This document shows, in pieces, positions 15,328-46,951 of a DNA stretch of 61,436 bases; the stretch's first letter is position 1; every line of letters starts with the position of its first letter. Below the pieces are notes generated by a model. The model saw only the letters and a program-made list of their open reading frames with translations, searched no databases and was not told where the DNA came from. A program made the translations under genes and the position numbers. The stretch is from Acidobacteriota bacterium (GTDB lineage: Bacteria; Acidobacteriota; Polarisedimenticolia; Polarisedimenticolales; DASRJG01). Where the stretch lies: NCBI GenBank assembly GCA_041500265.1, contig JBGQLU010000002.1, positions 1 through 61,436 on the forward strand. Reading direction: 5' to 3'.

Positions 15328-15331
15328 CACC

Positions 15332-20159: not shown

Positions 20160-20271
20160 CCAGATTCCCTCCGAGGTCAGTGCCGCACCGGGTTCAGCGC
20201 CCAGGATATCCCCCCAAAACAACGCCCTCTCCCGGACAGCGGGTGCGAGTCTCTGCGCTCGATTCCGCCTA

Positions 20272-20299
20272 AATGTACCCGGAAGATCAAGAACGTCAA
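20272..20299 (-). promoter_or_regulatory. sigma70-like promoter candidate for the secreted-protein cassette
   Basis: Minus strand reads TTGACG, a 16-nt spacer, then TACATT, about 105 nt upstream of ATG 20159, inside a 214-bp intergenic gap. Hexamer match only. Confidence 0.3.
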
Positions 20300-20373
20300 G
20301 GTGAGAATCCTCTACCCCCATGGCTTGGGCGCCGCCTCCCCTGGCGACGGTTGCTTCGAAAACCGAACGAAAG

Positions 20374-27924: not shown

Positions 27925-29825
27925 CGATGGAACTCGCGCATCAGATCGGCAAACGCGGGGTCTCCCCGGACGCTCCGCAAATCCGGGTCGGTCTGGAGGC
28001 TGTCCCAGCTCCGGTAGCCGGCGCGGATCGCCCGCCGGAGGTAATCGACGCTCCCCTTCACGTCCCCCGTGAGCGCCCGCATGCACGCGATGTCGTAGAG
28101 AAGGTCGTAGGACCCGGGGCGCGAGGACACGACCGCCTCCCAGAGGCGCGCGGCCTCCGCGGGTTCCTGGCGGTCGAACGAATGGCCGAACCAGTGGAGG
28201 GCCTCCGGAGCACACGGATAGTGCGCCACCGACTCTTCGAAGCGGGCCTTTCCCCTCGGCCGAAGCGTCCCGCCGCTGTTGTTGATCCCCCACTCGAGCG
28301 TCGCGGCAAGGTTCAGAGGATCCAGCGCGAGCGCTGCCTTGAAATGCGGGATCGCGGCGACCAGACCGCCGCGGGCCGATTCCCACCTCGCCGCCCAGAC
28401 TTCTTTCGCGATGGTCGCGCACTCGTCGCGCGGGCCGCAGTCGCGACCGGCGTCGGGAGCCTGCTCGATCTTGATGCCGCGCTTTTCCAGCAGCGGCGCG
28501 ACCGTCTCAAGTGGCACCGACCTCGTAGGGATCTTCGAACGGCCCAATACAGCCTCTTTCAAGGACGCCACCTCCGGCGCACCGGCGGCGACCGCCGTGC
28601 CATCCAGGTTGCGGCTCTCCTCCATCAGTCCGACGCCGATCCGAAGAGTGTGGCGCAAGCCGCAGGTCCACGCCTTCCAACCCATCTGGTCGAGGGGAGC
28701 GGTGGACCACGCGAAGATCGTGCGGTCCTTGGGAATCCCCGCGGCGAGGTCCACGCCCTCGGAACCAGAAAGCTCGACTCCCCCGGCGCTCGCGAGCGTG
28801 ACCGCCACGTCCGGCCCCCACGCCATTCCCGCAGGGGCCGCCTTGCGCCTCTCCGGAGCCGCCCGGTAAACGAGCGGCACCCGGACCGCGTTCTCGCTCG
28901 GCGAGAACCCCGGACCCGGGATGCGGCTCCCCTTCTCGGAGACGTCGCCATAGGTCGCGGACCAGAGGATCTCGGCGCCCTCGAGCCGGGAGAGCGACTG
29001 CAGGCCGGTCAGAAGTTGATCGAGCGCCTGGTCTGTAGTGCCGATGCGCTGGTCGAGCTCTGTCCCCTCGACGGAGGCGCCGAACAACCCCGGCACCGCG
29101 GTGCAGGGCTCGCCGAAATGCAACCAGACGAAAGCGCGGTCCGAGGGCGCCACCGACCGAAGCCAGCCGAGGGCGTGCTCCACGACCTTGCCGGCCGGGA
29201 GTGGGCGCACGAGGCGCTGGGGGGTTCCGAAGGGGATCCCTTCCGGCTCGTCCACGACCTGGAATCCGCGAACGACGCCGCTCGCCGACTCGAGAAACGG
29301 GGTCCCGGGAAACGCGGCGGTCTTGAAACCCGCCCGTTGGAGGCTCTCCGCGAGCAGCGGCGTCTTCTCGCCGAGCGGAGTGTAGATGTCGTCCACGACA
29401 CCGTGGCGATCGGCTCCCAACCCGGTGAGCATCGATGCGACCGCAGGGCGGGTCATCGGGTCCGCCGTCCAGCCTTGAAGCGCGACCCCTCCCGCCGCGA
29501 CGAGCCGGTCGAGACCGGGCGTCGCCACGGCACCGCCGTACAGCTTGAGGCGTGCGGGCGGTATCGCGTCCACCGTGACCAGGACGATGGTCGATGCGCC
29601 GCGGGACGCGACAGGGAGCGCCGCGGGAAGCGCGGCCGGGAGTGCGGCCGAGGGCGCAGTCGGGGGAGCGGCGGGGGCATTGGGCGTTGGAGCGGGCTCG
29701 GCTGACGGCGCAGTCGGGGGAGCGGCCGAGGTCGCGGCCGGACGCCCGCAAGCTGCCGCGAACGCGAGCGCCGCGACACACAAGACCCGGGTTCGCCAGT
29801 ACGTCCTCCCGACCTTCACCGTCAT
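27921..29825 (-). CDS. sulfatase-like (alkaline phosphatase superfamily) lipoprotein with Pro/Ala-rich linker and C-terminal TPR-like domain
   Basis: Start trimmed to ATG 29825, with GGAGGAAGGAG upstream. Signal plus lipobox ...ALAFAAAC, a 50-aa P/A/T/S linker, then IVLVTVDAIPPARL..., nucleophile-region DPMTRPAVASMLTGLGADRHG, and a TPR-like tail. Confidence 0.75.
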   Translation of the reverse strand: MTVKVGRTYWRTRVLCVAALAFAAACGRPAATSAAPPTAPSAEPAPTPNAPAAPPTAPSAALPAALPAALPVASRGASTIVLVTVDAIPPARLKLYGGAVATPGLDRLVAAGGVALQGWTADPMTRPAVASMLTGLGADRHGVVDDIYTPLGEKTPLLAESLQRAGFKTAAFPGTPFLESASGVVRGFQVVDEPEGIPFGTPQRLVRPLPAGKVVEHALGWLRSVAPSDRAFVWLHFGEPCTAVPGLFGASVEGTELDQRIGTTDQALDQLLTGLQSLSRLEGAEILWSATYGDVSEKGSRIPGPGFSPSENAVRVPLVYRAAPERRKAAPAGMAWGPDVAVTLASAGGVELSGSEGVDLAAGIPKDRTIFAWSTAPLDQMGWKAWTCGLRHTLRIGVGLMEESRNLDGTAVAAGAPEVASLKEAVLGRSKIPTRSVPLETVAPLLEKRGIKIEQAPDAGRDCGPRDECATIAKEVWAARWESARGGLVAAIPHFKAALALDPLNLAATLEWGINNSGGTLRPRGKARFEESVAHYPCAPEALHWFGHSFDRQEPAEAARLWEAVVSSRPGSYDLLYDIACMRALTGDVKGSVDYLRRAIRAGYRSWDSLQTDPDLRSVRGDPAFADLMREFHR

Positions 29826-29873: not shown

Positions 29874-31871
29874 ATGCGCGATCTCGCCCGCCAGCGACGC
29901 GGGAGGGCGGAGGACGGCGCTGTGCGCTCGAATGGAGGCGCCCTCGGGGGAGCCCTGCTGATCGTCGCGGTGACGCTTTTCGCGTACGCCCCCGCGCTGC
30001 GCGCCGGGTTCAACTGGGACGACGCCCGGTACGTCACCCAGAATCCGATGCTCGAGGACGCGCACGGCCTGTGGCGGATCTGGTTCGACAGTTCCGCGAC
30101 CGTTCAGTACTACCCGCTGACCCACACCACGTTCTGGCTGGAACGGCACCTGTGGGGGCTTCGCCCCTTCGGCTTCCACCTCGTCAACGTCCTCCTCCAT
30201 GCCGGCTCGGCGATCCTGTTCGCCTCGATCCTGCGAACGCTGCGCGTGCCGGGCGCGTGGCTCGCGGCGGGGATCTTCGCCTTGCACCCCGTGCACGTCG
30301 AATCGGTGGCCTGGGTGACCGAGCGCAAGAACGTCCTGTCCGGCATCCTCGCCTTAGGCGCCGCCCTGGTCTACCTCCGCTCCGCGCGGCTCGACGCCGA
30401 GGCGGAAGAGCGATCCGGCTCGCTTGGCGTCCTGTCGATGATCCTCTTCTGCGGTGCTCTCTTCGCCAAGACGGTGGCCGCGACGCTTCCGGTCAGCCTC
30501 GCCCTCGTCCTCTACTGGAAGCGAGGCCGATGGGAGCTGCGCGACCGCGTCTATCTCCCCGCCATGGTGGCCTGCGCCGCGATGCTGGCGCCCTTGACCG
30601 CGTGGCTCGAGAGGCACCAGGTGGGGGCCCAGGGTCCCGAGTGGAACCTACCCCCGGCGGAGCGCGTCGTGATCGCGGGCCGGGCCTTCTGGTTCTACCT
30701 CGGGAAGCTCGCGTGGCCCCATCCGCTGATCTTCACCTACCCGCGCTGGACCGTGAACGCGGGGTCGGCGGCATCGTACGCGGCGCCGGCCGCGGTCCTC
30801 GCCCTGCTCGCGGGACTCTGGCTGCTCCGCCGACGCCTCACGACAGGTCCGTTCGTCGCCGCCGCGTACTTCCTCCTCACGCTGTTCCCCGCGCTCGGCT
30901 TCGCGAACGTCTTCCCGATGCGTTACTCCTTCGTCGCCGACCACTTCCAGTACCTCGCGAGCCTCGGACCGATCGCGGTCGCCGCGGCGGGGGCCGTCGC
31001 CGGATGGGCCGCGCTCGCGAGGAGAGCGCCGGGGGGCGCGGCCCGGCGCGCCGGCGCCGTCGCGGCGGGGCTCCTCTTGGCCATTCTCGGAACGCTCACA
31101 TGGAGCCGCGCCCACGCGTTCCGGGACGAGGAGACGCTCTGGCGCGACACGCTGGCGAAGAACCCCGACGCCTTCATGGCCCACAACAATCTGGCCCTCA
31201 TCGCCGTGCGGAGCGGCGATCTGACCACGGCCGCGGAGCATTTCGAGCGTTCGCTCCGCCTCAAGCCCGACTACGCCTCCGCGCTCAATCTCGGCATCGT
31301 GCTCGCGCGCCAAGGGCAAGACGAGAGGGCGATCGCGATGTACCGCGAGTCGCTGCGCGAGAAGCCGGACGAGATCGGCACCCACCTTCTGCTCGGCGAG
31401 GCGCTCCTCGAGAAGGGGGAGCGCGACGAGGCGCGTACCCACTTCGAGGCGGCGGTGCGCCTCGGACCGCAAGACGCCGGGGCGCTGAACGCGCTCGGGA
31501 GCTTTCTGCTGGAATCGGGGCGGGTCCGCGAAGCCACCGCGCTCTACGTGCGCGCGGTCGCGGCACTCCCCGACAGCCCCGTCGCCCGGCTGAATCTCGG
31601 GATCGCGCTGGCGCGCGACGGACGGGACGACGAGGCCCTCGCCCAGCTCCGAGCGGCCATGAGCCTCGCCCCCGCCGACCCCGACGTGCGTTACAACCTC
31701 GGCGCCCTTTTCGTCCGCACGGGGCACGCCGTGGAGGGTCGCGAGCAACTCTCGGAGGCCGTTCGCCTTCGGCCCGATTTCCCCGAAGCGGTGCAGGCGC
31801 TCGAGCTCAGCCGCCGGCGCCGTCCACGAACGTGCGGAGCTTCTCGTAAACGTCGAGCGAGACCAAGTTGA
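29874..31871 (+). CDS. TMTC-like polytopic membrane protein with C-terminal TPR repeats (putative protein O-mannosyltransferase-type GT-C)
   Basis: FAYAPALRAGFNWDDARYVTQNPML motif in the first loop, about 10 TM segments, then clear TPRs (AHNNLALIAVRSGDLTTAAEHFERSLRLKPDYASALNLGIVLARQG...). Alternative start GTG 29922 has GGAGGA 7 nt upstream and may be the true start. Confidence 0.7.
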   Translation: MRDLARQRRGRAEDGAVRSNGGALGGALLIVAVTLFAYAPALRAGFNWDDARYVTQNPMLEDAHGLWRIWFDSSATVQYYPLTHTTFWLERHLWGLRPFGFHLVNVLLHAGSAILFASILRTLRVPGAWLAAGIFALHPVHVESVAWVTERKNVLSGILALGAALVYLRSARLDAEAEERSGSLGVLSMILFCGALFAKTVAATLPVSLALVLYWKRGRWELRDRVYLPAMVACAAMLAPLTAWLERHQVGAQGPEWNLPPAERVVIAGRAFWFYLGKLAWPHPLIFTYPRWTVNAGSAASYAAPAAVLALLAGLWLLRRRLTTGPFVAAAYFLLTLFPALGFANVFPMRYSFVADHFQYLASLGPIAVAAAGAVAGWAALARRAPGGAARRAGAVAAGLLLAILGTLTWSRAHAFRDEETLWRDTLAKNPDAFMAHNNLALIAVRSGDLTTAAEHFERSLRLKPDYASALNLGIVLARQGQDERAIAMYRESLREKPDEIGTHLLLGEALLEKGERDEARTHFEAAVRLGPQDAGALNALGSFLLESGRVREATALYVRAVAALPDSPVARLNLGIALARDGRDDEALAQLRAAMSLAPADPDVRYNLGALFVRTGHAVEGREQLSEAVRLRPDFPEAVQALELSRRRRPRTCGASRKRRARPS

Positions 31872-32985
31872 CCAGGATCGACGACCAGACGTAGGCGTAG
31901 GTCGCGGGCAAGCAGAGCAAGAGCGCCCACTTCGCCTCACGGCGCGACCAGAGCTCACCGAACGGAATCACGAGCAGAAACGGATACACGGGAACCATGA
32001 AACGACCCTGATCGGGGAGCGTGGTGAAGACGTTCGGAAGCGCGAGAAGCGCCGAGACGAAGAAGGCGTCCTTGTGGCCGTTCCGCCACAGCCAGACCAG
32101 GCCATACGCCAGGGCGAGGTAGAGGAGAACGGTGCCGTACCCCTCGGAGGCTTCGTGATGCAGGCCCGCGTCGAAGATCCCGCGGAACGGCACCCAGGAC
32201 ATCTTGTCGGCGTTCTCGCTGAAATACGCCCAGAAGTTCCCCAGCCTCGCGGACAAGACGAGGAAGTGCAGCCCGAGGAAGATCGGGATCGGGAGGAACG
32301 ACGCGGTCACGCGGAGGAGACTCGTCAGGCTCCGGCGGGTGACGAGCTGCCGCGGGCTCCACCCGGAGATCTCTCCCAACCGGGTGAGCTCCGCCAGGAG
32401 AAACGCGGGAAACAGCAGCACGCCGTAGATCCGGGTGATCGAGGCGAGCCCACCGAAGAGGCCGGCGAGAGCGAGGGAGCGCTTCCGATAGAAATAGAAC
32501 GCGCACAGGATGAACAGGAGAAACGGCGGCTCGCTCGCGCCCACGCTGTGGTAGATCACCCATCGCGGCGGGAAGAAGACGAAGGCGGCCGTGCACCACA
32601 GCGGGTCGCCCACGAGACGGAACTCGTCGAGAAGGCGATAGAGCACGGAAAAGCAGAGGCAGGAGAAGACGAACGTCACGACCAGCATGGCGTCGAAGTA
32701 TCCGAAGATCGGCGACAGCAGGCGGATGGAAAGCGGGGTAACGGGGAGGATCACGCGAATGCCGTACGTCGCGCCGAACGCCGCGAAGACGCCGCACGCC
32801 GGGTCGTAGAGGCTCCGCGCGACGGCGACGTACACCGGCCCATCCCAGAAGCGTTGGATCAGCGACAGTCCCGCCGCCGGCTCGCCTCCCCAGGGAACGA
32901 GGCCGACGGCGTAGGTCGCCAGCGTCGAGAGGAGATTGAGGAGAATCAAGAGGGCGTGCGGCCGCAGGGCTCTCGACGTGTTCAC
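31807..32985 (-). CDS. polytopic membrane protein, possibly PIG-V/GT-C-like mannosyltransferase
   Basis: 392 aa, about 10 TM segments, first-loop motif IQRFWDGPVYVAVARSLYDP. GTG start. The 3' end overlaps the convergent TMTC-like gene by 65 bp. Family call is weak. Confidence 0.55.
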   Translation of the reverse strand: MNTSRALRPHALLILLNLLSTLATYAVGLVPWGGEPAAGLSLIQRFWDGPVYVAVARSLYDPACGVFAAFGATYGIRVILPVTPLSIRLLSPIFGYFDAMLVVTFVFSCLCFSVLYRLLDEFRLVGDPLWCTAAFVFFPPRWVIYHSVGASEPPFLLFILCAFYFYRKRSLALAGLFGGLASITRIYGVLLFPAFLLAELTRLGEISGWSPRQLVTRRSLTSLLRVTASFLPIPIFLGLHFLVLSARLGNFWAYFSENADKMSWVPFRGIFDAGLHHEASEGYGTVLLYLALAYGLVWLWRNGHKDAFFVSALLALPNVFTTLPDQGRFMVPVYPFLLVIPFGELWSRREAKWALLLCLPATYAYVWSSILVNLVSLDVYEKLRTFVDGAGG

Positions 32986-33107
32986 TCGGCCACACCTTTT
33001 CGTCGCTCGGGCTTCCCGAGGCGCGGCGAGCCTAGTCCGGCGCGCGGGGGACCGTCAACAGGGCACGGCGTCGCGTTTCCGCCGGCGACGGGGTACGATC
33101 GGCCGAC

Positions 33108-34697
33108 GTGAACGGCGGCGAGGACTCACGAGGTACGGCACGGCGGCCGCAGATCCTCTACCGCCTTCTATTCGCGCTCCTCTGCGCCGCGTTCGTCCTC
33201 CATGCGCTCCGGCACGCCTTCCTCATCGACGACGCGTACATCTCGTTCCACTACGCGCGCAACCTGGTCGAGGGGGCGGGGCTGGTCTTGAACCCCGGCG
33301 AGCGCGTGGAGGGTTACTCGAATTTCCTCTGGGTCCTCCTGCTCGCCGCCGGGATGAAGTGCGGTGTCGCGCCGGAGACGCTCTCGCGAGCGCTCGGGAT
33401 GCTGGCGGGGCTCGCGCTCCTCGAAGTGACGAGGCGGCTCGCGCTGCGGCTGCTCCCGGAGGAACCTCTCTCGCGATGGCTGGCGCTCCTTGCGGTCGCG
33501 ATGCTGGTGGCCAGCCGCACCGTCGCCGCGTGGTGCACGGGAGGATTGGAGACGCGCCTCTACACCGTCCTCATCGCCGCCGGACTGCTCCTGCTCGCGA
33601 GGGAGATCTCGACGGAGTCCGGCGTGTTTCCCTGGAGCGCCCCCGTCCTCGGCCTGGCGCTCCTCACGCGCACGGACGGATTCCTCCTGGTCGGCATCCT
33701 GGCGGCCGGGCTGCTGCTGTTCCGCAAGGGGAAGGTCGGCCGCCACGGCACGCTCTTCTTCGGAATCCTCGCGCTGACGATCGGCGCGCAGCTGGCGTTC
33801 CGGCGCGCTTACTACGGGGAATGGCTGGCCAACACCTACTACGCCAAGGTTCCCGGCCTGGCCTTGCGATCCGGATTCCGGTACCTGGCGCTCGCCGCCG
33901 GCTCCTACGGCCTGTACCTCTCGATCCCCCTCGCCCTGCTCGCGCTCGAGCGCCCGTCGAAGCGCCGGTCGGTGGCGTGGCTCGGGTGCGCCCTGCTCCT
34001 CGGTCACCTGGCCTACGTGGCCTCGGTCGGTGGGGACCATTTCGAGCTCCGCTTCGTGGACGTCGTCTGGCCGTTGACGGCCGCTCTCTCGATCGCCGGC
34101 GCTCGGCGGATTCCACGCCTCCTCCCGGCTCGAGCCGGGAGCGCGCTCGCAACCGCGCTCGCCGGATGTCTCGTTCTCTGGAACTTGGTCCCGGCGTTCC
34201 GAGGGTTCGCCTCCACCGAGGCGACCTTCGCGATCGAGCTCGAATCGAGCCTGTGCATCGCGTGGTCCGAGGTCGGGCGCTACTTCCGGGACCACGCCGC
34301 CCCCGACGAGGTGATCGCCTTGCGCCCCGCCGGCGTCATCCCCTACGTGAGCCGCCTGCGGATCCTCGACATGGAAGGGCTCTCGGACAAGATCGTCGCG
34401 CGGCGGCCTCCCGCGCCTGGATGGGACACGCCGGGCTGGGGGAGAATCGCGAACTGGGAGGATGTGCTCATCCGCGCGCGCGCGACCTACTACGTCCAGC
34501 ATCCCGACCTGAGGACGGGACCGGCCACCGAGCCCGAGCCGCCGGCCATCGTGGAGGTCGAGGGGCGGCGGTTCGCGCTCTGCCCGGTGCGCGTGCCGCT
34601 CCGGGGGTTCTGGCTGCGGTTCTTCGTCATCTCGGAGGAGGCCGTGGTCGGAGACCGCATCGACGCGTCACGCATCCGCAGCCGAATCCGCCCGTGA
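33108..34697 (+). CDS. GT-C-like membrane glycosyltransferase, DDA[YF]I-motif family (paralog 1)
   Basis: 529 aa. N-terminal TM followed by FLIDDAYISFHYARNLVEGAGLVLNPGERVEGYSNFLWVLLLAAG, about 10 TM segments and a soluble C-terminal domain. GTG start. Confidence 0.7.
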   Translation: MNGGEDSRGTARRPQILYRLLFALLCAAFVLHALRHAFLIDDAYISFHYARNLVEGAGLVLNPGERVEGYSNFLWVLLLAAGMKCGVAPETLSRALGMLAGLALLEVTRRLALRLLPEEPLSRWLALLAVAMLVASRTVAAWCTGGLETRLYTVLIAAGLLLLAREISTESGVFPWSAPVLGLALLTRTDGFLLVGILAAGLLLFRKGKVGRHGTLFFGILALTIGAQLAFRRAYYGEWLANTYYAKVPGLALRSGFRYLALAAGSYGLYLSIPLALLALERPSKRRSVAWLGCALLLGHLAYVASVGGDHFELRFVDVVWPLTAALSIAGARRIPRLLPARAGSALATALAGCLVLWNLVPAFRGFASTEATFAIELESSLCIAWSEVGRYFRDHAAPDEVIALRPAGVIPYVSRLRILDMEGLSDKIVARRPPAPGWDTPGWGRIANWEDVLIRARATYYVQHPDLRTGPATEPEPPAIVEVEGRRFALCPVRVPLRGFWLRFFVISEEAVVGDRIDASRIRSRIRP

Positions 34698-36670
34698 GCG
34701 GCGGCGGATCCGAAGCGGTGGGCGCGGCCACGCCGAGGCGCGCCGGGTGGCGCCTCCTCGTCGGCGCGGCGCTCCTGTTGCCGGCGCTGTGGCACGCGGG
34801 CGCGATCGCGAGGATCTTCCTCTCCCGCGCGGCCTATCCGATGGACATCGAATGGCTGGAGGGCGGAGAGCTCTACCAGGCGTACCGGTGGGACCACGGG
34901 CTCAGCCTGTACGGTCCCCCCGATCAGGGGTACCTCCCCTACACCCATCCGCCGCTCCACTTCGTCGCGCTCTCGCTGGCCGGCCGCGTGGCCGGGCTCG
35001 ACTACGCCACGGGTCGCGCGCTCTCCGCGTTCTTCTTCGCCCTCGCCTGCGCCGCGGTCGCCGCCGCGGTCTGGCGCGCGTGCACGAGCCCGGCCGAGCG
35101 GCTGACGGCGCCGGCCTTCGCGGTGGCGATGGCGATGGCGAGCTTCCCCGTCGCCGGGGGCATCTACGATCTGATCCGGAACGACACTTTGGCCCTGGGG
35201 CTCGTGCTCCTCGCCGCCGTCCTGGTGGGAGACGGCAGGACCTCGACGACGCGGATCGTGCTCGCGGCGGCGGTCTTGACCGCGGAGGGGTTCACCCGCC
35301 TCCCTTACCTCGCAATGGGCGTCGCGCTCGGCGTCTTCGTTCTGGCGCGGAGCCGGCGGAACGGACTCCTGCTCGGAGGGTGCACCGCTCTCGCCGGGGG
35401 CGCCGCGCTCGGCGGGCTCCAGCTCGCCACCGGAGGCTGGTTCTGGTGGTACTCGGTGACTGTCCTCTCCGGGCATCCCCTCGTCGCGAAGCGGTTCCTC
35501 GACGGCCTCCGCGCGGTGCTGGACTTCGCCCCGTTCCTCGTGGCACTCCCGTTCGTCCTCGGGATGCCGGCCTTCCGGCGGCGCCTATCGCCTCGAACCG
35601 TGTTGTGGTGCGCGCTCCTCGGCGCCGCGCTCCCGGCGGGGCTCCTCCCCTACGCCAAGCTCGGAGGGTTCGACAACGATCTGATCCCGATCGTCTTCCT
35701 CGCGGGTCCGGTGGCGGTGCTCGTCGTCCTGGATCTCTTGCGCGGGGCACCGGGGGCTCCGGGCCCGCCGGGATGGGTTCGCTGGTCGGCGGTCGTGGCC
35801 GCCTCCGCGTTCCTCGCCTGGCGCACGTACGATCCCGCGCGGTTCATCCCCGACGCCTCGCGGTGGGCGCGGGCGGAGCGGCTGAACTCTTTCGTGGCGG
35901 GACTGCGCGGAGGCGTCATCATCCCGAACCACCCGTTCCTCCCGATCCGGAACGGCCAGACGGGGCCGCAGCTCCACACGATGCCCTACCTCGACGTGAT
36001 CGGCCGCGGGCTGGGTGAGGCGATCTACCCGTACATCGAGACGTCGAACGCGGCCTGGGCGATCTTGGACGGCGGCGAGCCCCTGGTTCGAGAGACGGTG
36101 TTGAGCTTGTACGACTTCGTCGGCACGCTCCCCGATCCCGTCTCGACGATGGTCGGCTTCCCGTCGTCGCCCAGCCTGCTCTTCAAGCGGCGCGAGCCGC
36201 TCCGGAAGTCGGCGGTGCGGGTCCTCTTCGACTTCGAGTCGGCGTCCTACGAAGGCTGGACGGCGACTGGCGACGCCTTCGGCTCCTCTCCGACCGCCGG
36301 CCGGCCTCCCGACCAGGGGGTCATCCTCGGTTACCGCGGGCGTGGGCTTGCGAACTCCTTCTCCCGAGCGTCGGGTGATGCGGCGACCGGGACGTTGACC
36401 TCCCCGCTCTTCACCATCGACCGCAGGAGTCTCGCCCTGCTGGTGGGCGGAGGGACGCGCGCGGCGACGAGGGTCGAGCTCCGCGTGGACGGCCGGCCCG
36501 TTCGAGAAGCCTCCGGTCCGGGCGGGGACGTCATGGTTGGAACGGTGTGGGACGTGTCGACATTTCGCGGACGGCAAGGGCAAATCGCGATCGTGGACGA
36601 GGACACGGGGCCGTGGGGGCACGTCCTCGCCGACCAGATCGAGCTGTTCGATCCGCCGGGCGCTCCTTGA
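34694..36670 (+). CDS. polytopic membrane protein (GT-C-like) with C-terminal LamG/concanavalin-like beta-sandwich module
   Basis: Start set at GTG 34694, a GTGA overlap with the upstream stop. Multi-TM N-terminal two thirds. C-terminal FDFESASYEGWTATGDAFGSSP...TGTLTSPLFTI...LLVGGG...VELRVDG...VWDVSTFRGRQGQIAIVDEDTGPWGHVLADQIELFD. Confidence 0.7.
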   Translation: MSGGGSEAVGAATPRRAGWRLLVGAALLLPALWHAGAIARIFLSRAAYPMDIEWLEGGELYQAYRWDHGLSLYGPPDQGYLPYTHPPLHFVALSLAGRVAGLDYATGRALSAFFFALACAAVAAAVWRACTSPAERLTAPAFAVAMAMASFPVAGGIYDLIRNDTLALGLVLLAAVLVGDGRTSTTRIVLAAAVLTAEGFTRLPYLAMGVALGVFVLARSRRNGLLLGGCTALAGGAALGGLQLATGGWFWWYSVTVLSGHPLVAKRFLDGLRAVLDFAPFLVALPFVLGMPAFRRRLSPRTVLWCALLGAALPAGLLPYAKLGGFDNDLIPIVFLAGPVAVLVVLDLLRGAPGAPGPPGWVRWSAVVAASAFLAWRTYDPARFIPDASRWARAERLNSFVAGLRGGVIIPNHPFLPIRNGQTGPQLHTMPYLDVIGRGLGEAIYPYIETSNAAWAILDGGEPLVRETVLSLYDFVGTLPDPVSTMVGFPSSPSLLFKRREPLRKSAVRVLFDFESASYEGWTATGDAFGSSPTAGRPPDQGVILGYRGRGLANSFSRASGDAATGTLTSPLFTIDRRSLALLVGGGTRAATRVELRVDGRPVREASGPGGDVMVGTVWDVSTFRGRQGQIAIVDEDTGPWGHVLADQIELFDPPGAP

Positions 36671-38220
36671 GCGCCGCGGCGCCGGACGCTCGGCCGCGCC
36701 CCTGGCTCATCCCAGCCTGCATCGCCGCGCTGGCCGTCCTGGCGGTGACGCTTCGCTGGCGCTGCTTTCACGCCTACGTGGACGAGGGTGACCCGTGCGA
36801 GTACGTGTGGGCGATCCGGCAGGCGTACCTGCCACACTCTCCCTACGTGCTCTTCCTCTGGATCGGGCGCGCGATGGCGGCGTGCGGAGCTCCGGCCGAC
36901 ATCGGGCTTTCGGCTCTCAGCCTGGCCTCCGGTCTCTCCGCCGTGGCCCTGCTGGGGCTGGTCGTGCGCCGCCAGACGGCGGAGACCGCGGCCGGATGGC
37001 TGGCCTCTCTCGGATTCGCCGTCTTTCCGATCTGCGTCTGGTTCTCCGGCATCCAGGAGGTCTACGCGCTCCAGACCGCGCTCGCGTTGGCCGCGGTCTG
37101 CGCCGCGCTCTCGGGCGGAGGGCCGGCAAGCGGGGCGGCCGCGGGGCTGCTGTTCGGCGCGGCCTTTTCGGCGCACGACGGCACGATCCTGTTGGCGCCC
37201 GCGATGGCCGTCGCCGTCTGGGACGGCACCGGCGCCGGGGCGACCCTCCGCGCGCGGCTCGCGCGGCTCGCGCGGCTGGGCGCTGCGCTGCTGGGTGCTT
37301 CGCTGATGCCCGTCCTCGCCTACGGCTGGCTCGCCTGGATCTTCGCGCACCGTGACGCCGGCCCATGGATCGGTCCCTGGCTGCGCTATCTCCGCGGCAT
37401 CACCCCCGCCCCGGAGCTCGGCGGCCTCGGCGCCGCATCGGCGCTCGCGAGGATCCAGGCGCTCGTCGCCGGATCGCTCGGCGCGATCGCGGGCTCGGTC
37501 GCGATCCCGCTCGCCCTTCTGGTGATTGCGATCGTCATCCTCTTGGCCGTGCGCGGGCGACGCACGCTTCTCTTCTGGACGATCTACGCCGCTCCGTGCC
37601 TCGCCTACGAGCTCGCGCTCGGACGCAACGTCGACCCGGGCATCTACATGGTCTACCTCGCCCCCGCGCTCGCCGCGATCCTCGCCGCGGCGGCCACGGT
37701 CCTGCCGGCGCGCGCCCGCGGTCCCGCCGTGGCGGTCCTCGTCGCCGGCGCCCTCCTCGGCCCCTGCGTCCGATCCGCGGCGCTCGCGGAAAAGGTCGTC
37801 TCCCGCGATGCCTTCCTGCGCTCGGAATGGATGCAGACCTGCGATTGGCTCCGGCGCCATGCGCCACCCGGAAGCGTGCTCGTGCAGCCTCCCGGGCTCG
37901 AGCACGTCAACTTCATGCCGTGCCACACGGGGCTGCGGCCGATCATCGTGCAGGAGGGGCTTTTTCGGATCTTCGTCGGGGGGCCGGGAACGCCGCTGAA
38001 CCTCGACGCCTTCCCGTTGCTTCAACCGGCCCACCTCGATCGACTGCTCGATCGAGGGGTCCCCGTCCTGTCGCTGGTGCCGGATCCCTTCCGATCGACG
38101 GCCGGAGACGGCGAGCGAACGGCGACCCGCTACCGGTGGAGGGAAGAGACGATCGCGCCGGACGCAGGAGCGGAGCCGCCCCGCGCGCTGTACGTGCTCG
38201 AGCGCAACGTCGGTCGCTGA
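36667..38220 (+). CDS. polytopic membrane protein, DUF2723/TMEM260-like GT-C candidate
   Basis: Start set at TTG 36667, a TTGA overlap. First-loop motif VDEGDPCEYVWAIRQAYLPHSPYVLFLW resembles the D-x-G-[DE] ... H-[PS]-P-x-Y-x-LF signature of that family. About 11 TM segments. Family call is tentative. Confidence 0.6.
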   Translation: MSAAAPDARPRPWLIPACIAALAVLAVTLRWRCFHAYVDEGDPCEYVWAIRQAYLPHSPYVLFLWIGRAMAACGAPADIGLSALSLASGLSAVALLGLVVRRQTAETAAGWLASLGFAVFPICVWFSGIQEVYALQTALALAAVCAALSGGGPASGAAAGLLFGAAFSAHDGTILLAPAMAVAVWDGTGAGATLRARLARLARLGAALLGASLMPVLAYGWLAWIFAHRDAGPWIGPWLRYLRGITPAPELGGLGAASALARIQALVAGSLGAIAGSVAIPLALLVIAIVILLAVRGRRTLLFWTIYAAPCLAYELALGRNVDPGIYMVYLAPALAAILAAAATVLPARARGPAVAVLVAGALLGPCVRSAALAEKVVSRDAFLRSEWMQTCDWLRRHAPPGSVLVQPPGLEHVNFMPCHTGLRPIIVQEGLFRIFVGGPGTPLNLDAFPLLQPAHLDRLLDRGVPVLSLVPDPFRSTAGDGERTATRYRWREETIAPDAGAEPPRALYVLERNVGR

Positions 38221-38230
38221 GGCGCGGCGC

Positions 38231-40153
38231 TCACGCGAGCCAGGTCTCCCGCCAGCGCTGAAACATGAAGAGGGTGAACAAGGGCTTGCGGTGATCCCGC
38301 GTGCCTTCGAGGTGCTCGTTCACGAGGGTCCTCACCGCTTCGGGCCGGAAGAGCCCCTCGTTCCGCAGGCGGCCGGGATCGAGGGCGGAGAGAAGCTCGC
38401 CGCGCATCCCTTCCCGGAACCAGCGGCCGATCGGCAGGGCGAACCCCCTCTTGGGTCGGCTCAACACATCACCGGGGAGAATCCCTCGGAGCGCTTCCTT
38501 CAGCACGTGCTTGAGCCGCCCGTGGCGCACCTTGAGGCTTCCCGGAATCGCGAACGCCTGCACGACGAAGTTGAAGTCGAGCAGCGGAGCGCGGGCCTCG
38601 AGCGACACCGCCATCGTCGCGCGGTCGAGCTTCGTCAGGATCCCCTCGGCCAGGTACCCCTTCGCGTAGAGGTACGCATCGCGGTTGACGGGATCGAGCT
38701 CGCGCGCCCGGCCGTACTGCGCCCGGATCTCGTCGTAGAGCGTGGGCAGGTCGAGGACCGCCCGCGCCTCCGGCGTGAGGAGCCCCGGCAGCTCCTCCGG
38801 CACGAACGCGCCGAGCCACCGCCAGAGGCGCTCGTCGTCGCGCGCCTTGGCACCGCGAAGGAATTGGTTCGCCTTGAAGTCGAGCGAGAAGTAGCCGAAC
38901 TCGGGGCGGAGCCGGCGCGCGGCCGGCCGGACGAGCGCCCGGTCGGCCCAACCCGGCACCATGCTCGCGTAGAGGCGGGCCAGGCGGAGGGCCCGGAACG
39001 TCGGGTAGCCGGCGAAGAGCTCGTCGCCGCCGTCGCCGGAGAGCGCGACGGTCACGTGACGCCGCGTGAAGCGCGCCAGGAGATAGGTCGGCAGGATCGA
39101 GGCGTCCGCGAACGGCTCGTCGAGGAACCCGCAGACCGGCGGGATCGCCGCGCGTGCCGCCTCGACGTCGAGGATCTCCTCGCGATGGTCGGTTCCGAGG
39201 CGGGAGGCGAAGGCGCGGGCGGCGGCGGACTCGTCGAAGCGCGGGTCGGTGAAGCCGATGGAAAAAGTCTTCACGCGGTCGTGGCCCAGCAGGTCCACCA
39301 TCGTGGTCGTCATCGCGGAGCTGTCGATCCCTCCCGAGAGGAACACGCCCAGGGGAACGTCCGCGACGAGGCGGCGCTGGACGGCCTCCCGCAGCCCCTC
39401 GCGAATCGCCGGGCCCAGCTCGCGCGACGTGCGATCCGCCGAGGCCGAGGTGGTCCCGCCGATCGCGCCGATCGGGTCCCAGTACGTGCGCGTGGTCAGC
39501 TCGCCGGTGTCGAGGCCGAAGGTGAAGGTGGAGGCCGCGGGGAGCTTCCGCATCCCTTCGTAGATCGCGTGGGGCGCGGGCACGTGCTCGAAGAGGAGGT
39601 AGAGGGCGGCGGAGCGGACGTCGAGGGTGCGGCGGACGGCGGGGTGACGAAGGAGCGCCTTCGCCTCGCTGGCGAACGCGAAGAACGTGCCGTCGTGGAC
39701 GAGGTAGAGGGGCTTTTCTCCCATCCGATCCCGCGCGCCGAACAGGAGGCGGCGCGGCCTGTCGTGGATCACGAACGCGAACATGCCGTTCAGGTGATCG
39801 ACGCATCGCTCGCCCCAGGCGGCGTAGGCGTTGAGGATCGTCTCGGTGTCCGAACGCGTCCGCGCCGGGTGCCCCAGACCCGTAAGCCGCGAGTTCAGCT
39901 CCCCGTAGTTGTAGATCTCGCCGTTGTAGACGATCGAGAGCGTGCCCGCCGCGTCGCGCATCGGCTGGCCGCCCCCCTCCCGGTCGATGACCACGAGCCG
40001 CCGATGCCCGAGCGCGACGCTCGCTTCGGTCAGGTACCCTTCCGCGTCCGGGCCGCGGTGGGTCAGGGCGGCCGTCATCCGGCGCAGGACGTCCTCGCCC
40101 TCGACCGGAGGCGCCGGCGATCCCGCCCGCGCGAACCCCACGATTCCACACAT
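38231..40153 (-). CDS. asnB: asparagine synthase (glutamine-hydrolysing) family amidotransferase
   Basis: 640 aa. MCGIVGF N-terminal nucleophile Cys2, the glutaminase domain (YNGEIYNY), and PP-loop SGGIDSS in the synthetase domain. Confidence 0.9.
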   Translation of the reverse strand: MCGIVGFARAGSPAPPVEGEDVLRRMTAALTHRGPDAEGYLTEASVALGHRRLVVIDREGGGQPMRDAAGTLSIVYNGEIYNYGELNSRLTGLGHPARTRSDTETILNAYAAWGERCVDHLNGMFAFVIHDRPRRLLFGARDRMGEKPLYLVHDGTFFAFASEAKALLRHPAVRRTLDVRSAALYLLFEHVPAPHAIYEGMRKLPAASTFTFGLDTGELTTRTYWDPIGAIGGTTSASADRTSRELGPAIREGLREAVQRRLVADVPLGVFLSGGIDSSAMTTTMVDLLGHDRVKTFSIGFTDPRFDESAAARAFASRLGTDHREEILDVEAARAAIPPVCGFLDEPFADASILPTYLLARFTRRHVTVALSGDGGDELFAGYPTFRALRLARLYASMVPGWADRALVRPAARRLRPEFGYFSLDFKANQFLRGAKARDDERLWRWLGAFVPEELPGLLTPEARAVLDLPTLYDEIRAQYGRARELDPVNRDAYLYAKGYLAEGILTKLDRATMAVSLEARAPLLDFNFVVQAFAIPGSLKVRHGRLKHVLKEALRGILPGDVLSRPKRGFALPIGRWFREGMRGELLSALDPGRLRNEGLFRPEAVRTLVNEHLEGTRDHRKPLFTLFMFQRWRETWLA

Positions 40154-40178
40154 CGGATGCCCCGGCGGGCCGCCTCCG

Positions 40179-41219
40179 TCAGGCGGGAGGCTCGGAGGCG
40201 GCCTTCGGAGACCGTCCGCGTCCTCTGAGGCTCTTGATCACGTAGGCCCGCTTGTTCTGCGACTCGAAGTAGGTGCGCATCAGGACCTCCGCCAGGAGCC
40301 CGATGAAGATCATCTGCAGTCCGACCACGAAGAGGCCGACGCTCAAGACCGGCAGCGGCGTCGCGATGAAGTCCTTGTGCCACTGCGGGTCCCACGGATT
40401 GTTGCGGGGGATCAGCTTGAAGGTGACCGACAGGAGGAAGGTGAGCAGCGACAGGCCGATGCTCATCATCCCGAACCCCCCGAAGACGTAGATCGGCTTG
40501 GTGATGTACGCCGAGAAGAACTTGAGCACGATGAGGTCGAGCACGACCTTCATCACGCGCTCCATCCCGTAGTGGGAACGTCCCGACCTCCGGGCCCGGT
40601 GATGCACCGGGATCTCGGTGACCCGCGCTCCCTGCCACCGCGCGAAGATCGGGATGAAGCGGTGCATCTCGCCGTAGAGGCGCACTTCCTCGAGCGTCTC
40701 GCGACGGTACGCCTTGAGGGAGCAGCCGTAGTCGTGCAGCGGAACGCCGCCGACCTTGGAGATCACGAAGTTCGCGAGCCGCGACGGAAGGACGCGCGAG
40801 AGAGAGTCCTTCCGGTCCTTCCGCCACCCGGAGACGACGTCGTACCCGCGGTCGAGCTCGCGCAGCAGCGCCGCGATGTCCGCGGGATCATTCTGGAGGT
40901 CGCCGTCCATCGGAACGATCACGGCGCCTTGCGCGAGGTCGATTCCAGCGGCCATGGCGGCCGTCTGTCCGAAGTTTCTGCGAAAGGTCACGACGAGCAC
41001 CCGCGGGTCGGTGCGAGCCAGCTCGGCCAGGATCTCCGGCGACCGGTCGTGCGACCCGTCGTCCACGAGGATCAGCTCGTGCGACCGCCCGAGCTTTGCC
41101 ATCGCGTCGCACGTCTCGCGGTAAAGGGTCGGGATGTTGTCGGCTTCGTTGAAGAGCGGAACGACGATCGAGACGTCGACGGCTCCCCCCGGGGGCGGAT
41201 CGCTCTCGGAGGCCAGCAT
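40179..41219 (-). CDS. GT2 polyprenol-phosphate glycosyltransferase (GtrB/ArnC/Dpm1-like)
   Basis: 346 aa. VSIVVPLFNEADNI...LILVDDGSHDRS...GAVIVPMDGDLQNDP (GT-A DxD), two C-terminal TM helices, and the architecture of lipid-carrier sugar-charging enzymes. Confidence 0.88.
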   Translation of the reverse strand: MLASESDPPPGGAVDVSIVVPLFNEADNIPTLYRETCDAMAKLGRSHELILVDDGSHDRSPEILAELARTDPRVLVVTFRRNFGQTAAMAAGIDLAQGAVIVPMDGDLQNDPADIAALLRELDRGYDVVSGWRKDRKDSLSRVLPSRLANFVISKVGGVPLHDYGCSLKAYRRETLEEVRLYGEMHRFIPIFARWQGARVTEIPVHHRARRSGRSHYGMERVMKVVLDLIVLKFFSAYITKPIYVFGGFGMMSIGLSLLTFLLSVTFKLIPRNNPWDPQWHKDFIATPLPVLSVGLFVVGLQMIFIGLLAEVLMRTYFESQNKRAYVIKSLRGRGRSPKAASEPPA

Positions 41220-41413: not shown

Positions 41414-41530
41414 TCAGCTCTGAATCGGGCCTGCGGCGCAAGCGGTGTCCGTGGACTTCGTGCACGTCACGGCCCGGGCTTCGAGCTTCTCCGTGTGGAT
41501 GATTGCTGGCTTCTCGTAGATCTTCTTCAT
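41414..41530 (-). CDS. 38-aa candidate RiPP precursor peptide (not in ORF track)
   Basis: Minus-strand ATG 41530 preceded by GGGGGAGG. Translation: MKKIYEKPAIIHTEKLEARAVTCTKSTDTACAAGPIQS, stop TGA 41416-41414. 32 of 38 codons end in G/C, matching the genome coding bias. It lies 126 nt downstream of the rSAM gene on the same strand, with a terminator about 100 nt further on. Confidence 0.65.
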   Translation of the reverse strand: MKKIYEKPAIIHTEKLEARAVTCTKSTDTACAAGPIQS

Positions 41531-41617
41531 GAGCCTCCCCCTGAATTGGAGTTCTATCTGGTCGTAGCTACAAGTCAGTTTCACCCTGATCGGGCCATCC
41601 GCCCGAAACCGGCAGAT

Positions 41618-41656: not shown

Positions 41657-42736
41657 TCAACCCTTGTTGCCGCCTATTTGCAGCAACTCGTAAGCCCGTT
41701 TCACCGCCCGGGCGTTGATGTCGACCTGAGGATAAATCGCCAGCGGGTCCCCCATCTGCGTTTCGGCCACACCGAGGCAGAAGGTCATGTACTGGCCGTT
41801 TTCGTGCCGACTGATGCGGTTCTTCGCTTCGATCGACAGGTCCCGGACCTCGTTGAGCACGGGGGACGACCCCCAGATGTCGCTGAAGCTATTGATTTCC
41901 AAGATGTTACCGATCTTGCGCCGAAACGCCACGCACGGGAGGATGTTCCCGTAGGGGTCGATCGTGAACCCGGAGCGGCCGGTGCCGCAGTTGGCTTCGG
42001 CCCCTTCCGACGCGCAGTGGTTGGCCCGCGGGGGGAGCTTTCCCCGGTGGAGCTCCATGTACCATTCCCCCCAGTACTTCTCGAGGAATTCGGCACTGGG
42101 CCGGAGCGCGAGCGGGTCGAGGTTGCCGTCGTCCTTCGGGGTGATCACCGCATCGAAGGTCACGAAAACGCCCAGCCGGTCGCCGATGTCGCGGATTTCG
42201 AACAACTCGTCCTGGTTGAGCTTGGTGATCGGGCACTTGAGGTTGATCTTGATCCCCGCCTCGACGAGGTTTTCGAGTGCCTTGACGGTTTTGGCGAACG
42301 ATCCCTTGATCCGCGTCAGCGCCTCGTGGGTTTCCGGCCGGGCGCCGTGAATCGAGACCTCGACCTCCATCGGCTTCAGCTCGCGGACCTTGGCGAGCAT
42401 CGCCGGATCGGCGAGCAGGTACCCGTTGGTGTAGATCCTGAGCGCCATCCCCAGCCGCCGCACCTCGCCGGCGATCTTGAAGAAGTCCCTGTGGCAGAGC
42501 GCTTCGCCTCCGGTCAGCGTCATGTACAGGACGCCGAAGTCGGCGATCTTTCGAAGGGCTTCGAAGACCTGGGGGGTCGTTAGCTCCTTCTGTCCGGTGG
42601 GCGAGTTGTAGCAAAACGTGCAGAGGTGGTTGCACCGGAAGGTCAGCTCGAACTGGGCGGACAGCGGGATCGCGTGAGCGAACGCCGAGTCCATGATGTG
42701 CTGATACGGGCTGACCCGTTCCGTCGCGCCACTCAT
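41657..42736 (-). CDS. radical SAM peptide-modifying enzyme with C-terminal Cys-containing auxiliary (SPASM/twitch-like) domain
   Basis: 359 aa. FELTFRCNHLCTFCYN (CxxxCxxC), GGEAL SAM-binding motif, and a C-terminal ...NHCASEGAEANCGTGRSGFTIDPYGNILPC...MTFCLG. ATG 42736 forms an ATGA overlap with the PqqD-like gene. Confidence 0.88.
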   Translation of the reverse strand: MSGATERVSPYQHIMDSAFAHAIPLSAQFELTFRCNHLCTFCYNSPTGQKELTTPQVFEALRKIADFGVLYMTLTGGEALCHRDFFKIAGEVRRLGMALRIYTNGYLLADPAMLAKVRELKPMEVEVSIHGARPETHEALTRIKGSFAKTVKALENLVEAGIKINLKCPITKLNQDELFEIRDIGDRLGVFVTFDAVITPKDDGNLDPLALRPSAEFLEKYWGEWYMELHRGKLPPRANHCASEGAEANCGTGRSGFTIDPYGNILPCVAFRRKIGNILEINSFSDIWGSSPVLNEVRDLSIEAKNRISRHENGQYMTFCLGVAETQMGDPLAIYPQVDINARAVKRAYELLQIGGNKG

Positions 42737-43041
42737 GCCCCGACCTCCGCCGACCGTTCGTCCAGCATGCCGTGACGCGCGAGGTCGCTCACGAAGTCGC
42801 GCGCGTCGGCGGCCGCCGCCTCGGGGGCGACGTCGAATTCGTCCGCGATGACGGCGGCAATTTCATCGACCGTCCGCGTCCCGTCGAGGAGTCCGAAGAT
42901 ACGGATGGCGGCCGGATTGAGCACTTTGACCTCAGCCTTGCCGGCGAGCACGACGAGGCCTCCCTCGTCCGCAACCGCGCGAAACGCGCTGTCGGGATGC
43001 CGCCGGGGGCGGTTCGGAACCGCCGGAGTCACCTCGAACAT
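42733..43041 (-). CDS. PqqD-family peptide chaperone (RRE domain)
   Basis: ...FRAVADEGGLVVLAGKAEVKVLNPAAIRIFGLLDGTRTVDEIAAVIADEFDVAPEAAAADARDFVSDLARHGML is the typical PqqD pattern. ATG 43041 has GAGGAA 6 nt upstream. The alternative in-frame ATG 43062 lacks an SD. Confidence 0.8.
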   Translation of the reverse strand: MFEVTPAVPNRPRRHPDSAFRAVADEGGLVVLAGKAEVKVLNPAAIRIFGLLDGTRTVDEIAAVIADEFDVAPEAAAADARDFVSDLARHGMLDERSAEVGA

Positions 43042-43167
43042 GGGGGGTTCCTCGCGTGCCATGTCAACAAGGACCGAAGGGGTCCTCTTTGGAGCCCTTA
43101 GTTTACGGTCAAGTCCCGGGATCGGCAATCCCGGAGGGAAAGTGCGGGTCCGCGGCCTTCTCCCACG

Positions 43168-45934: not shown

Positions 45935-45964
45935 CCTCGGCAATCTACCACGCGGGGCGGGGCG

Positions 45965-46882: not shown

Positions 46883-46951
46883 GCGTCGTGCAATATAAGG
46901 ACCCCCGCGGGCCGCGAACAAGGTCCCGGACCGACGAGGTCGCCCCGGCCG

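Follow-up and report, generated by a model that had tools for sequence, protein, structure and literature searches.

A putative lipid-linked-sugar glycosylation locus with five kinds of GT-C-like enzyme in an Acidobacteriota bacterium

Introduction

In transmembrane glycosylation, polyprenyl phosphate receives a sugar from a GtrB- or ArnC-type synthase, and after flipping of this lipid-linked sugar a glycosyltransferase of the GT-C type carries out the extracytoplasmic transfer (PMC11127046, PMC8035078). Described systems of this kind are GtrA/GtrB/Gtr* of Shigella and Salmonella, CsbB/GtcA/YfhO and GacI/GacL (PMC8035078, PMC11127046). Some GT-C enzymes carry accessory domains. In Emb, AftD and GT136 enzymes a carbohydrate-binding module (CBM) binds the glycan acceptor (PMC11127046), and TfpW of Pseudomonas aeruginosa, a GT-C enzyme with tetratricopeptide (TPR) repeats, arabinosylates pilin (bioRxiv 10.1101/2020.04.19.049825). 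Lipid-linked-sugar glycosylation is understood in few models, and most bacterial GT-C enzymes are without a known donor or acceptor. Here we describe a cluster of seven genes, named A to G, at positions 29874–41219 of a 61,436-nucleotide stretch of DNA (the window) from an Acidobacteriota bacterium (assembly GCA_041500265.1, contig JBGQLU010000002.1, positions 1 to 61,436 of the forward strand).

The cluster encodes five adjacent polytopic membrane proteins (A–E), an AsnB-type amidotransferase (F) and a GT2 protein (G). We consider it fairly likely that the locus is an extracytoplasmic glycosylation toolkit using lipid-linked monosaccharides. Structural models of D and E, together with the sequence matches of C and G, bear out the core of an initial annotation of this DNA, which placed GT-C-type enzymes beside a Dpm1/GtrB/ArnC-type synthase and an AsnB protein. 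The same annotation framed the locus as a protein O-mannosylation toolkit, and this framing is not supported: no finding points to mannose as the sugar or to any protein as the acceptor.

Results

Gene organisation

The window has a G+C content of ~70%, and genes were called by third-position GC periodicity (GC3 frame analysis). The gene calls of a 62,284 bp contig from JGI metagenome 3300052990 yield the same seven products. Four bases are shared by the end of C and the start of D, and again by the end of D and the start of E, which couples the three genes in translation. G and F run in the same direction, with a gap of 25 bases. The convergent 3′ ends of A (+) and B (−) share 65 bases (31807–31871), reflecting either a true frame overlap or an over-extended basic C-terminal tail of A.

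Each of the five membrane proteins has 7 to 9 or more hydrophobic peaks. An acidic residue directly after helix 1 is invariant in the families of A, B, C and E, and at least 90% conserved in that of D. The four acidic first-loop motifs quoted in the initial annotation were all found in the translations (A, FNWDDARYV; B, WDGPVYVAVA; C, IDDAYISFHYA; E, DEGDPCEYVW...HSPYVLF), and the accessory domains it described were recovered as the TPR repeats of A and the C-terminal beta-sandwich of D. When single sequences were compared with Pfam and NCBIfam, D and E matched no family, and B and C gave chance-level or weak matches only, with no Pfam family for C.

Predicted structures of D and E

AlphaFold models of D and E were built from their homologue alignments and compared with solved structures using Foldseek. 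The model of D (pLDDT 85.9) retrieved EmbC/A/B, AftD, ArnT, ALG12 and AftB, with GT-C enzymes only at the top of the ranking. The model of E (pLDDT 84.5, pTM 0.86) retrieved ArnT, AglB, STT3, ALG9/12, PglB, Pmt4, AftB and DPY19; transporters ranked far lower, with near-zero probability. Because these confident models retrieve only GT-C enzymes at the top, D and E are predicted to be GT-C-fold enzymes. The structural comparison that the initial annotation had in view for all five proteins covered these two, and both match GT-C enzymes.

In D, helix 1 is followed by the motif YPMDIEWLEGG, in which D51 and E53 are the conserved, not strictly invariant, acidic residues of the family. Around 20 close homologues were found, none of them with a product name, and only the most distant matches carry PMT_2 (PF13231). 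The C-terminal 140 residues matched MAM, CBM35, CBM61 and gingipain adhesin domains and the C-terminal domain of EmbC in Foldseek; as modelled, this domain resembles carbohydrate-binding modules.

The invariant residues of E are D42, E45, Y46 and the LPHSPY segment (55–60). Only 12 homologues of E were found, including one of Candidatus Polarisedimenticolia. At its C terminus the E model has a small alpha/beta domain (residues ~400–513), and the protein has no TPR family match. A likeness to TMEM260/DUF2723 had been noted at this locus, and for E it persists as weak profile matches. The E family profile aligned with TMEM260 (9rql) at a marginal E value of 0.025, pairing WDxCEY...LPHSPY with GGDSGEL...AHPPGYP, and TMEM260 was the sole plausible sequence match of this profile among solved structures. 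PF11028 (formerly DUF2723) matched one of the 12 E-family members (E 0.008) and did not match E itself. What speaks against the likeness is that E lacks a TPR-like C-terminal domain. E thus appears to be the most TMEM260-like of the five proteins, at a marginal level that makes the likeness a lead and not a demonstration.

C and its AftB-like paralogues

A profile of C and eight homologues from related loci matched mycobacterial AftB (9dlf) with an E value of 4.1e-48 over profile positions 4–465, which is nearly full length. The DDAYI of C aligns with DDGLI of AftB, and D41 and D42 are invariant in the C family. Against the NCBIfam model beta_arabfuran_tase (NF041481), C itself scored 22 bits (E 3.4e-5), compared with an equivalog cutoff of 1050. 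By these matches C is an AftB-type GT-C homologue, far from an AftB orthologue. The AftB profile match ruled out C as a relative of TMEM260 or PIG-V.

At least three further AftB-like GT-C genes lie in the window, outside the seven-gene cluster (Table 1). Matches of these paralogues to NF041481 reached 54 and 30 bits, again below the cutoff. Neither a gene for a PRPP (phosphoribosyl pyrophosphate)-dependent donor pathway nor one for a UbiA-type enzyme was found in the window.

A and B as further GT-C candidates

The membrane domain of A carries a WDD motif at residues 48–50, with D49 and D50 invariant after helix 1, and TPR families match over residues 424–650. More than 7000 homologues at 50–60% identity were found across Acidobacteriota, Planctomycetota and Desulfobacterota-type lineages. 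Many of them are named protein O-mannosyl-transferase by JGI, and a minority carry PF13231 (PMT_2). PMT_2 was matched in two of 11 and three of eight relatives of A in two sets (best E 2e-8). The A-like proteins of two related loci, L001 and L085, which are 30–32% identical to A, match PMT_2 with full confidence. A search of the whole protein against solved structures was swamped by TPR proteins, and the membrane domain gave no match there by phmmer or with two family profiles. DUF1736 (PF08409), which in TMTC proteins lies between TM7 and TM8, was absent from A (E ≤ 0.01), from the 11 and eight relatives (E ≤ 1) and from the precomputed Pfam annotation of 120 homologues. The earlier comparison of A with TMTC proteins is therefore supported by the DD motif in loop 1 and the C-terminal TPR repeats, and opposed by the missing DUF1736. 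We infer that A is a PMT_2-superfamily-like GT-C protein with the architecture of TMTC and TfpW.

An exhaustive search placed B in a family of 334 cluster representatives, in which D48 of the WDGP motif is invariant, as are D325 and R328. Among solved structures, the B profile weakly matched GPI mannosyltransferase 1 (PIG-M; E 0.006). Weak Pfam matches of B and 46 relatives were to PMT_2 (6 of 47) and GT87 (2 of 47), and also to PIG-M, ALG3 and Mannosyl_trans4; all are GT-C families, and none is significant alone. B also matched the NCBIfam AZOBR_p60025 family of glycopolymer formation (E 3.5e-8). It had been called PIG-V-like, a name we drop: no PIG-V match was found for B or the 46 relatives, and the closest solved structure is PIG-M. 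Judged by these family matches, B is probably a small GT-C enzyme of PIG-M/GT87-like type.

The polyprenyl-phosphate sugar synthase and the amidotransferase

G matches Glycos_transf_2 in Pfam (9.9e-30, residues 17–179) and has hydrophobic peaks at ~residues 222–291. Among solved structures it aligned best with ArnC (E 1.3e-54) over residues 15–329, membrane helices included, followed by Synechocystis GtrB (5e-32) and the Dol-P-Man (dolichyl phosphate mannose) synthase DPMS of Pyrococcus (2.5e-14). The domain, the membrane helices and this full-length homology agree with the earlier description of a GT2 protein with two C-terminal helices and the architecture of polyprenol-phosphate-sugar synthases. 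In NCBIfam, G scored 205 bits against PRK10714 ArnC (cutoff 529) and 156 bits against PgfS (cutoff 500), both below the equivalog cutoff. Because it aligns end to end with ArnC, and then with GtrB and the archaeal Dol-P-Man synthase, G is predicted to be a polyprenyl-phosphate sugar synthase; its family matches do not assign the sugar, which is mannose for Dpm1, Ara4FN for ArnC and glucose for GtrB.

F matches Asn_synthase (1.1e-94) and GATase_7 (2.6e-43) in Pfam. Its MCGI start, with the nucleophile cysteine, and its two domains agree with the AsnB-type amidotransferase named in the initial annotation. The best NCBIfam model was TIGR03108, the XrtA/PEP-CTERM amidotransferase, at 544 bits, with the cutoff of 817 not reached. 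The probable role of F is to amidate a carboxylate, carried by the sugar, the donor or the product, as in the conversion of a uronic acid to a uronamide.

Conservation of the locus in relatives

Gene neighbourhoods were compared in relatives, of which the named ones are Acidobacteriota (Polarisedimenticolia, Acidobacteriia) and Myxococcota. One locus, L089, is a second contig of JGI metagenome 3300052990 and has the order sulfatase–A–B–C–(methyltransferase)–D–(499-aa (amino acid) protein)–AsnB, at 64–90% identity. A farmland soil locus, L088, keeps C–D–E–AsnB. Three loci, L001 (NCBI GCA_973471965.1), L003 and L090, have D–AsnB–GT2, which in L001 and L003 is followed by an MFS/spermidine-synthase fusion and an A-like PMT_2–TPR gene. 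F homologues 75–90% identical adjoin D or G homologues in all five of these loci, and the G homologues of L001 and L003 are 82–83% identical. L085 contains an FPP (farnesyl diphosphate) synthase, two A-like genes, E and C, with E and C adjacent.

More distantly, D-family genes were found at 45% identity in Sorangium cellulosum So ce56 and across many metagenome-assembled genomes of Myxococcota and Acidobacteriota; most Myxococcota D-family loci are without the other genes. A C-family gene often adjoins a D-family gene, and this adjacency is seen across phyla in L015, L021, L047 and L063. In the last of these, a distant Acidobacteriota locus, the D-family and C-family genes occur together with a true G orthologue. 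GT2 genes beside D-family genes in L015, L029, L041, L046 and L069 were rejected as G orthologues, being generic and without C-terminal membrane helices. On the basis of the synteny in L001, L003, L090, L088, L089 and L063, D, F and G form a conserved core, with A, B, C and E as co-conserved accessories in the closest relatives.

Three unannotated proteins of 499, 768 and 785 aa are encoded inside GT-C clusters of these relatives (L089, 9337–10836; L001, 6594–8900; L085, 4625–6982), and the 499-aa protein of L089 holds the position of E. These may be further undescribed GT-C families.

The wider window

The cluster belongs to an envelope-related island of ~9.6–54.3 kb set between housekeeping genes (KsgA, RNase J, FtsK, RNase III, UvrC, UvrB and a LysC–LysA fusion), and its GT-C-rich region spans ~13.5–54.3 kb (Table 1).

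Table 1. Coordinates and properties of the seven cluster genes and of other features in the window
Feature	Position	Strand	Size	Description
A	29874–31871	+	665 aa	Membrane domain ~1–420; C-terminal TPR repeats ~425–650
B	31807–32985	−	392 aa	Small polytopic protein, probably a small GT-C
C	33108–34697	+	529 aa	Putative AftB-like (GT89-type) GT-C; DD motif IDDAYISF
D	34694–36670	+	658 aa	Predicted GT-C membrane domain, periplasmic linker and C-terminal CBM-like beta-sandwich
E	36667–38220	+	517 aa	Predicted GT-C membrane domain and small C-terminal alpha/beta domain
F	38231–40153	−	640 aa	Glutamine-dependent AsnB-family amidotransferase; N-terminal MCGI (MCGIVG)
G	40179–41219	−	346 aa	Putative ArnC/GtrB/DPM1-type polyprenyl-phosphate glycosyltransferase; GT-A domain and two C-terminal membrane helices
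AftB-like paralogue of C	46901–49054 (start approximate)	+		C-terminal TPR repeats; 40% identity with C over 313 residues (BLASTP, E 6e-48); NF041481 E 5.6e-15
Distant AftB-like paralogue, polytopic	49030–50874	−		TPR repeats; paralogue matches to 46901–49054 and 52777–54288; LA_3751/2 putative glycosyltransferase family E 9.8e-5
AftB-like paralogue	52777–54288	+		Without TPR repeats; 39% identity with C over 231 residues (E 8e-28); NF041481 E 1.4e-7
MFS-like/spermidine-synthase-like/TPR fusion, second	9604–13005	+		
Polytopic protein with C-terminal TPR	13549–15330	−		~11 hydrophobic peaks; AZOBR_p60025 E 1.7e-4, weak
MFS-like + spermidine-synthase-like + TPR fusion	15332–18397	−		NF037959 101 bits (cutoff 40)
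ECF sigma factor	20915–21505	−		Adjoins C25 peptidase
Gingipain-type (C25) peptidase	21515–25855	−	1446 aa	Propeptide and FN3 domains
Sulfatase–TPR protein	26002–27924	−		Sulfatase 2.4e-43
Sulfatase–TPR protein	27921–29573	−		Sulfatase 3.6e-12
Small low-GC open reading frame	41414–41584	−		Ends ...MKKIYEKPAIIHTEKLEARAVTCTKSTDTACAAGPIQS; likely start at MKKIY
Radical SAM/SPASM enzyme	41657–42736	−		Peptide-modification cassette
PqqD-family chaperone	42733–43062	−		Peptide-modification cassette, directly upstream of the GT2 gene
Protein with ~5 N-terminal membrane helices	43168–45027	−	619 aa	Large soluble domain; no Pfam/NCBIfam match
FPP synthase	45041–45943	−		Trans-type polyprenyl_synt; NF045485 279.3 bits (cutoff 275)

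The two sulfatase–TPR proteins are co-conserved with GT-C genes. A copy 70% identical adjoins the A homologue in L089, and sulfatase genes adjoin D-family genes in the Myxococcota loci L022, L025, L049 and L076. The MFS-like fusion next to the polytopic TPR protein has a homolog directly adjoining the GT2 gene in L001 and L003. For the polytopic protein itself, earlier described as GT39-like with TPR repeats, the TPR part stood and the GT39 part was not supported, as no PMT or PMT_2 match was obtained in Pfam. A polyprenyl diphosphate synthase had likewise been noted; the gene does encode a trans-type polyprenyl_synt protein, which is an FPP synthase and not the cis-prenyl carrier enzyme UppS. 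As a short-chain trans-prenyl enzyme, it was rejected as a supply of the glycan carrier. A copy 65% identical lies near the GT-C/TPR genes of L085.

A peptide-modification cassette lies directly upstream of G, and its small low-GC reading frame may encode a Cys-containing peptide precursor for a thioether-type RiPP (ribosomally synthesised and post-translationally modified peptide). A paralogous pair at 54543–55364 and 55361–56308 (both −) shows weak likeness to HprK-related kinases A/B and ScmC. Proteins of these families go with radical SAM cassettes for peptide maturation, so the pair may have a link with the one at 41.4–43 kb. The 619-aa membrane protein beyond the cassette contains a VVCVDGLDG segment that, by eye, is alkaline-phosphatase-superfamily-like. 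At 18511–20760, by the C25 peptidase and the ECF sigma factor, lie genes for three small proteins that have hydrophobic segments at the N terminus and no annotation.

Discussion

A possible pathway and its acceptors

In the pathway that we propose, G, as assigned to its family from sequence, would move a sugar from a nucleotide sugar to polyprenyl phosphate at the cytoplasmic face of the membrane. A transporter would then flip the lipid-linked sugar, and periplasmic GT-C enzymes of five families would use lipid-linked donors on envelope acceptors. These enzymes would be the PMT_2-like protein A with its TPR domain, the small PIG-M/GT87-like protein B, the AftB-like protein C, the ArnT/Emb-like protein D with its CBM-like domain and the TMEM260-like protein E. 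Their placement in this step comes from the modelled fold for D and E, and from AftB homology for C, and is inferred for A and B.

The CBM-like domain of D and the AftB-like enzymes suggest that some of the acceptors are glycans or glycolipids, and on the same basis glycan acceptors are most likely at least as probable as protein acceptors. A may instead use its TPR domain to recruit a protein or a partner; in TfpW and TMTC, TPR repeats occur with protein acceptors. Taken together, the accessory domains favour acceptors that are mixed or are glycans.

Alternative explanations

Several observations weigh against a single toolkit of this kind. A and B are separate units, and the seven genes fall into at least three transcription units. 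The GT-C status of A and B is drawn from weak or transitive sequence matches, and hhalign comparison of the A family with the D and E families, using low-diversity alignments, gave probabilities of 1% and 14%, which are not significant. C and its paralogues may not use the product of G, as the donor of mycobacterial AftB is made from PRPP and not by a GT2 enzyme. No GtrA, SMR or MATE flippase was found among the scanned window proteins, including small open reading frames around G. MFS-like domains occur in the window only as parts of the spermidine-synthase-like fusions, and to see the missing lipid-sugar flippase in them is pure speculation. No nucleotide-sugar biosynthesis gene is present. 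Among relatives, the core of L001, L003 and L090 is without adjacent B and E, and E homologues often stand in unrelated contexts, for instance in L084 and L086. Part of this evidence would fit an envelope-biogenesis island of independent GT-C paralogues in a lineage rich in them, with no single pathway: only D, F and G would cooperate, and the other GT-C enzymes would take donors made elsewhere and serve unrelated glycans. The mixed orientation of the transcription units points in this direction, as do the at least 8 or 9 GT-C-like genes scattered over 13.5–54.3 kb among unrelated genes (the C25 peptidase, the ECF sigma factor, the radical SAM peptide cassette, the FPP synthase and a hydrolase). 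The solitary E homologues, the loci that keep only D–AsnB–GT2 and the Myxococcota loci with a D-family gene alone are also in line with it. We nevertheless regard such an island as possible but doubtful, because the A–B–C–D–AsnB order survives in L089 and C–D–E–AsnB in L088, C and D are adjacent across phyla, E and C are adjacent in L085, and the frames of C, D and E overlap.

There are two further explanations. A bacterial system of the protein O-mannosylation type, in which TMTC-, TMEM260- and PMT-like enzymes would add hexose to Ser/Thr of surface or periplasmic proteins from Dpm1-made polyprenol-phosphate mannose, draws on the TMTC/TfpW architecture of A and the JGI names of its homologues, on TMEM260 as the one solved structure matched by the sequence of E, through a D..E..HPP-type motif and with PF11028 in one family member, and on the homology of G to Dol-P-Man synthase. 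Bacterial GT-C enzymes do glycosylate proteins, as described for TfpW (bioRxiv 10.1101/2020.04.19.049825), streptococcal Pgf (PMC12041528) and actinobacterial Pmt (PMC12331936). We judge this system unlikely, given that A and its 120 homologues lack DUF1736, the TMEM260 signal is marginal in an E protein without a TPR domain, neither PIG-V nor GT39 families are matched, and G is much nearer to ArnC than to DPMS. In addition, the AftB-like C and the CBM-like domain of D are typical of glycan-acting enzymes, and no candidate acceptor protein was identified. The other explanation is an Arn/Rgt-type modification of lipid A or the lipopolysaccharide core, in which G would make an amino- or uronic lipid-linked sugar, ArnT-like GT-C enzymes would add it and F would amidate the sugar. 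In Rhizobium, one synthase, RgtE, serves four ArnT-like enzymes, RgtA–D, which is a precedent for it; G matches ArnC best, and the models of D and E have ArnT near the top of their structural hits. However, the score of G is far below the ArnC equivalog cutoff, no arnA-, arnB-, arnD- or arnE/F-like genes lie in the window, and lipid A modifiers do not feature AftB-like enzymes, a CBM-like domain as in D or a TPR domain as in A. This makes such a modification very unlikely.

Significance

B, D and E are without a Pfam family. The TPR-fused family of A is very large, uncharacterised and found across phyla. With an assayable donor synthase, five GT-C families and a gene order kept in relatives, the locus lends itself, in compact form, to tests of the function of GT-C families, including bacterial relatives of TMEM260/TMTC type. 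If its acceptors were proteins, GT-C protein glycosylation would extend to Acidobacteriota- or Myxococcota-like bacteria; if they were glycans, the locus would be a sign of periplasmic assembly of an envelope polymer not yet described. A more far-reaching idea, which we hold to be distinctly improbable, is a protein O-glycosylation machine of prokaryotic TMTC/TMEM260 relatives running on one Dpm1-like synthase. If this were true, the locus would be a bacterial, operon-linked antecedent of the 'non-canonical' O-mannosylation of animals, and CAZy would gain three new GT-C families, founded by D, E and B.

Comparison with known systems

Several described systems share parts with this locus, and each differs from it in others. 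Eukaryotic TMTC1–4 (GT105), which transfer mannose from Dol-P-Man to Ser/Thr residues of proteins, and TfpW of P. aeruginosa resemble A in having an N-terminal PMT_2/ArnT-like GT-C domain, a DD(X) motif after helix 1 and an extracytoplasmic TPR domain. Of the TMTC motifs described in PMC7801869, A by eye has collinear counterparts of M1 (DD), M2 (QYYPL vs SYRPL), M4 (K) and M7 (ADHFQY vs ERxxY), which we take as a lead and not a test; in contrast, A shows no evident M4 glutamate or DW motif, and DUF1736 was not detected. TMEM260 (PF11028, PDB 9rql) shares with E the modelled GT-C fold and, at marginal E values, the aligned motif. E differs in its alpha/beta C-terminal domain, which takes the place of a TPR-like one, and Foldseek ranks ArnT, AglB and STT3 first.

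The mycobacterial arabinan enzymes (AftA–D, EmbA/B/C; AftB PDB 9dlf/9dlh) offer a model of several GT-C enzymes acting on one polymer. C and three paralogues appear as AftB homologues (E 4e-48 for the C profile), and D, like Emb and AftD, has a C-terminal domain of carbohydrate-binding type. Mycobacterial decaprenyl-phosphate arabinose, however, is made from PRPP via a UbiA-type enzyme that has no counterpart gene in the window; the organism is not an actinobacterium, and C is far below the AftB cutoff. ArnC/ArnT, which serve lipid A aminoarabinose, and streptococcal PgfS/PgfM, which serve protein O-glycosylation, recall the locus in that the best models for G are ArnC and PgfS and that the models of D and E retrieve ArnT near the top. 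They differ in that G is below both equivalog cutoffs and other arn or pgf genes are absent.

Gtr-type systems share the general plan of a GT2 protein with C-terminal helices that makes a polyprenyl-phosphate monosaccharide and a GT-C enzyme with a loop-1 aspartate that transfers it to the extracytoplasmic side. Here there is no GtrA-type flippase gene, the GT-C enzymes number five and are of unrelated families, and the AsnB gene is tightly coupled. By analogy, the mechanism would make the locus kin to the Gtr, Arn, Rgt and Pgf systems and the mycobacterial arabinosyltransferases, as a form of multi-component transmembrane glycosylation. The initial annotation knew of no described bacterial system combining all of its elements. 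Bacterial systems that pair a GtrB-type synthase with a single GT-C enzyme or with several have already been described (PMC11127046, PMC8035078, PMC12041528); what is unusual in this locus is that five putative GT-C enzymes of five unrelated families stand side by side, together with a coupled AsnB.

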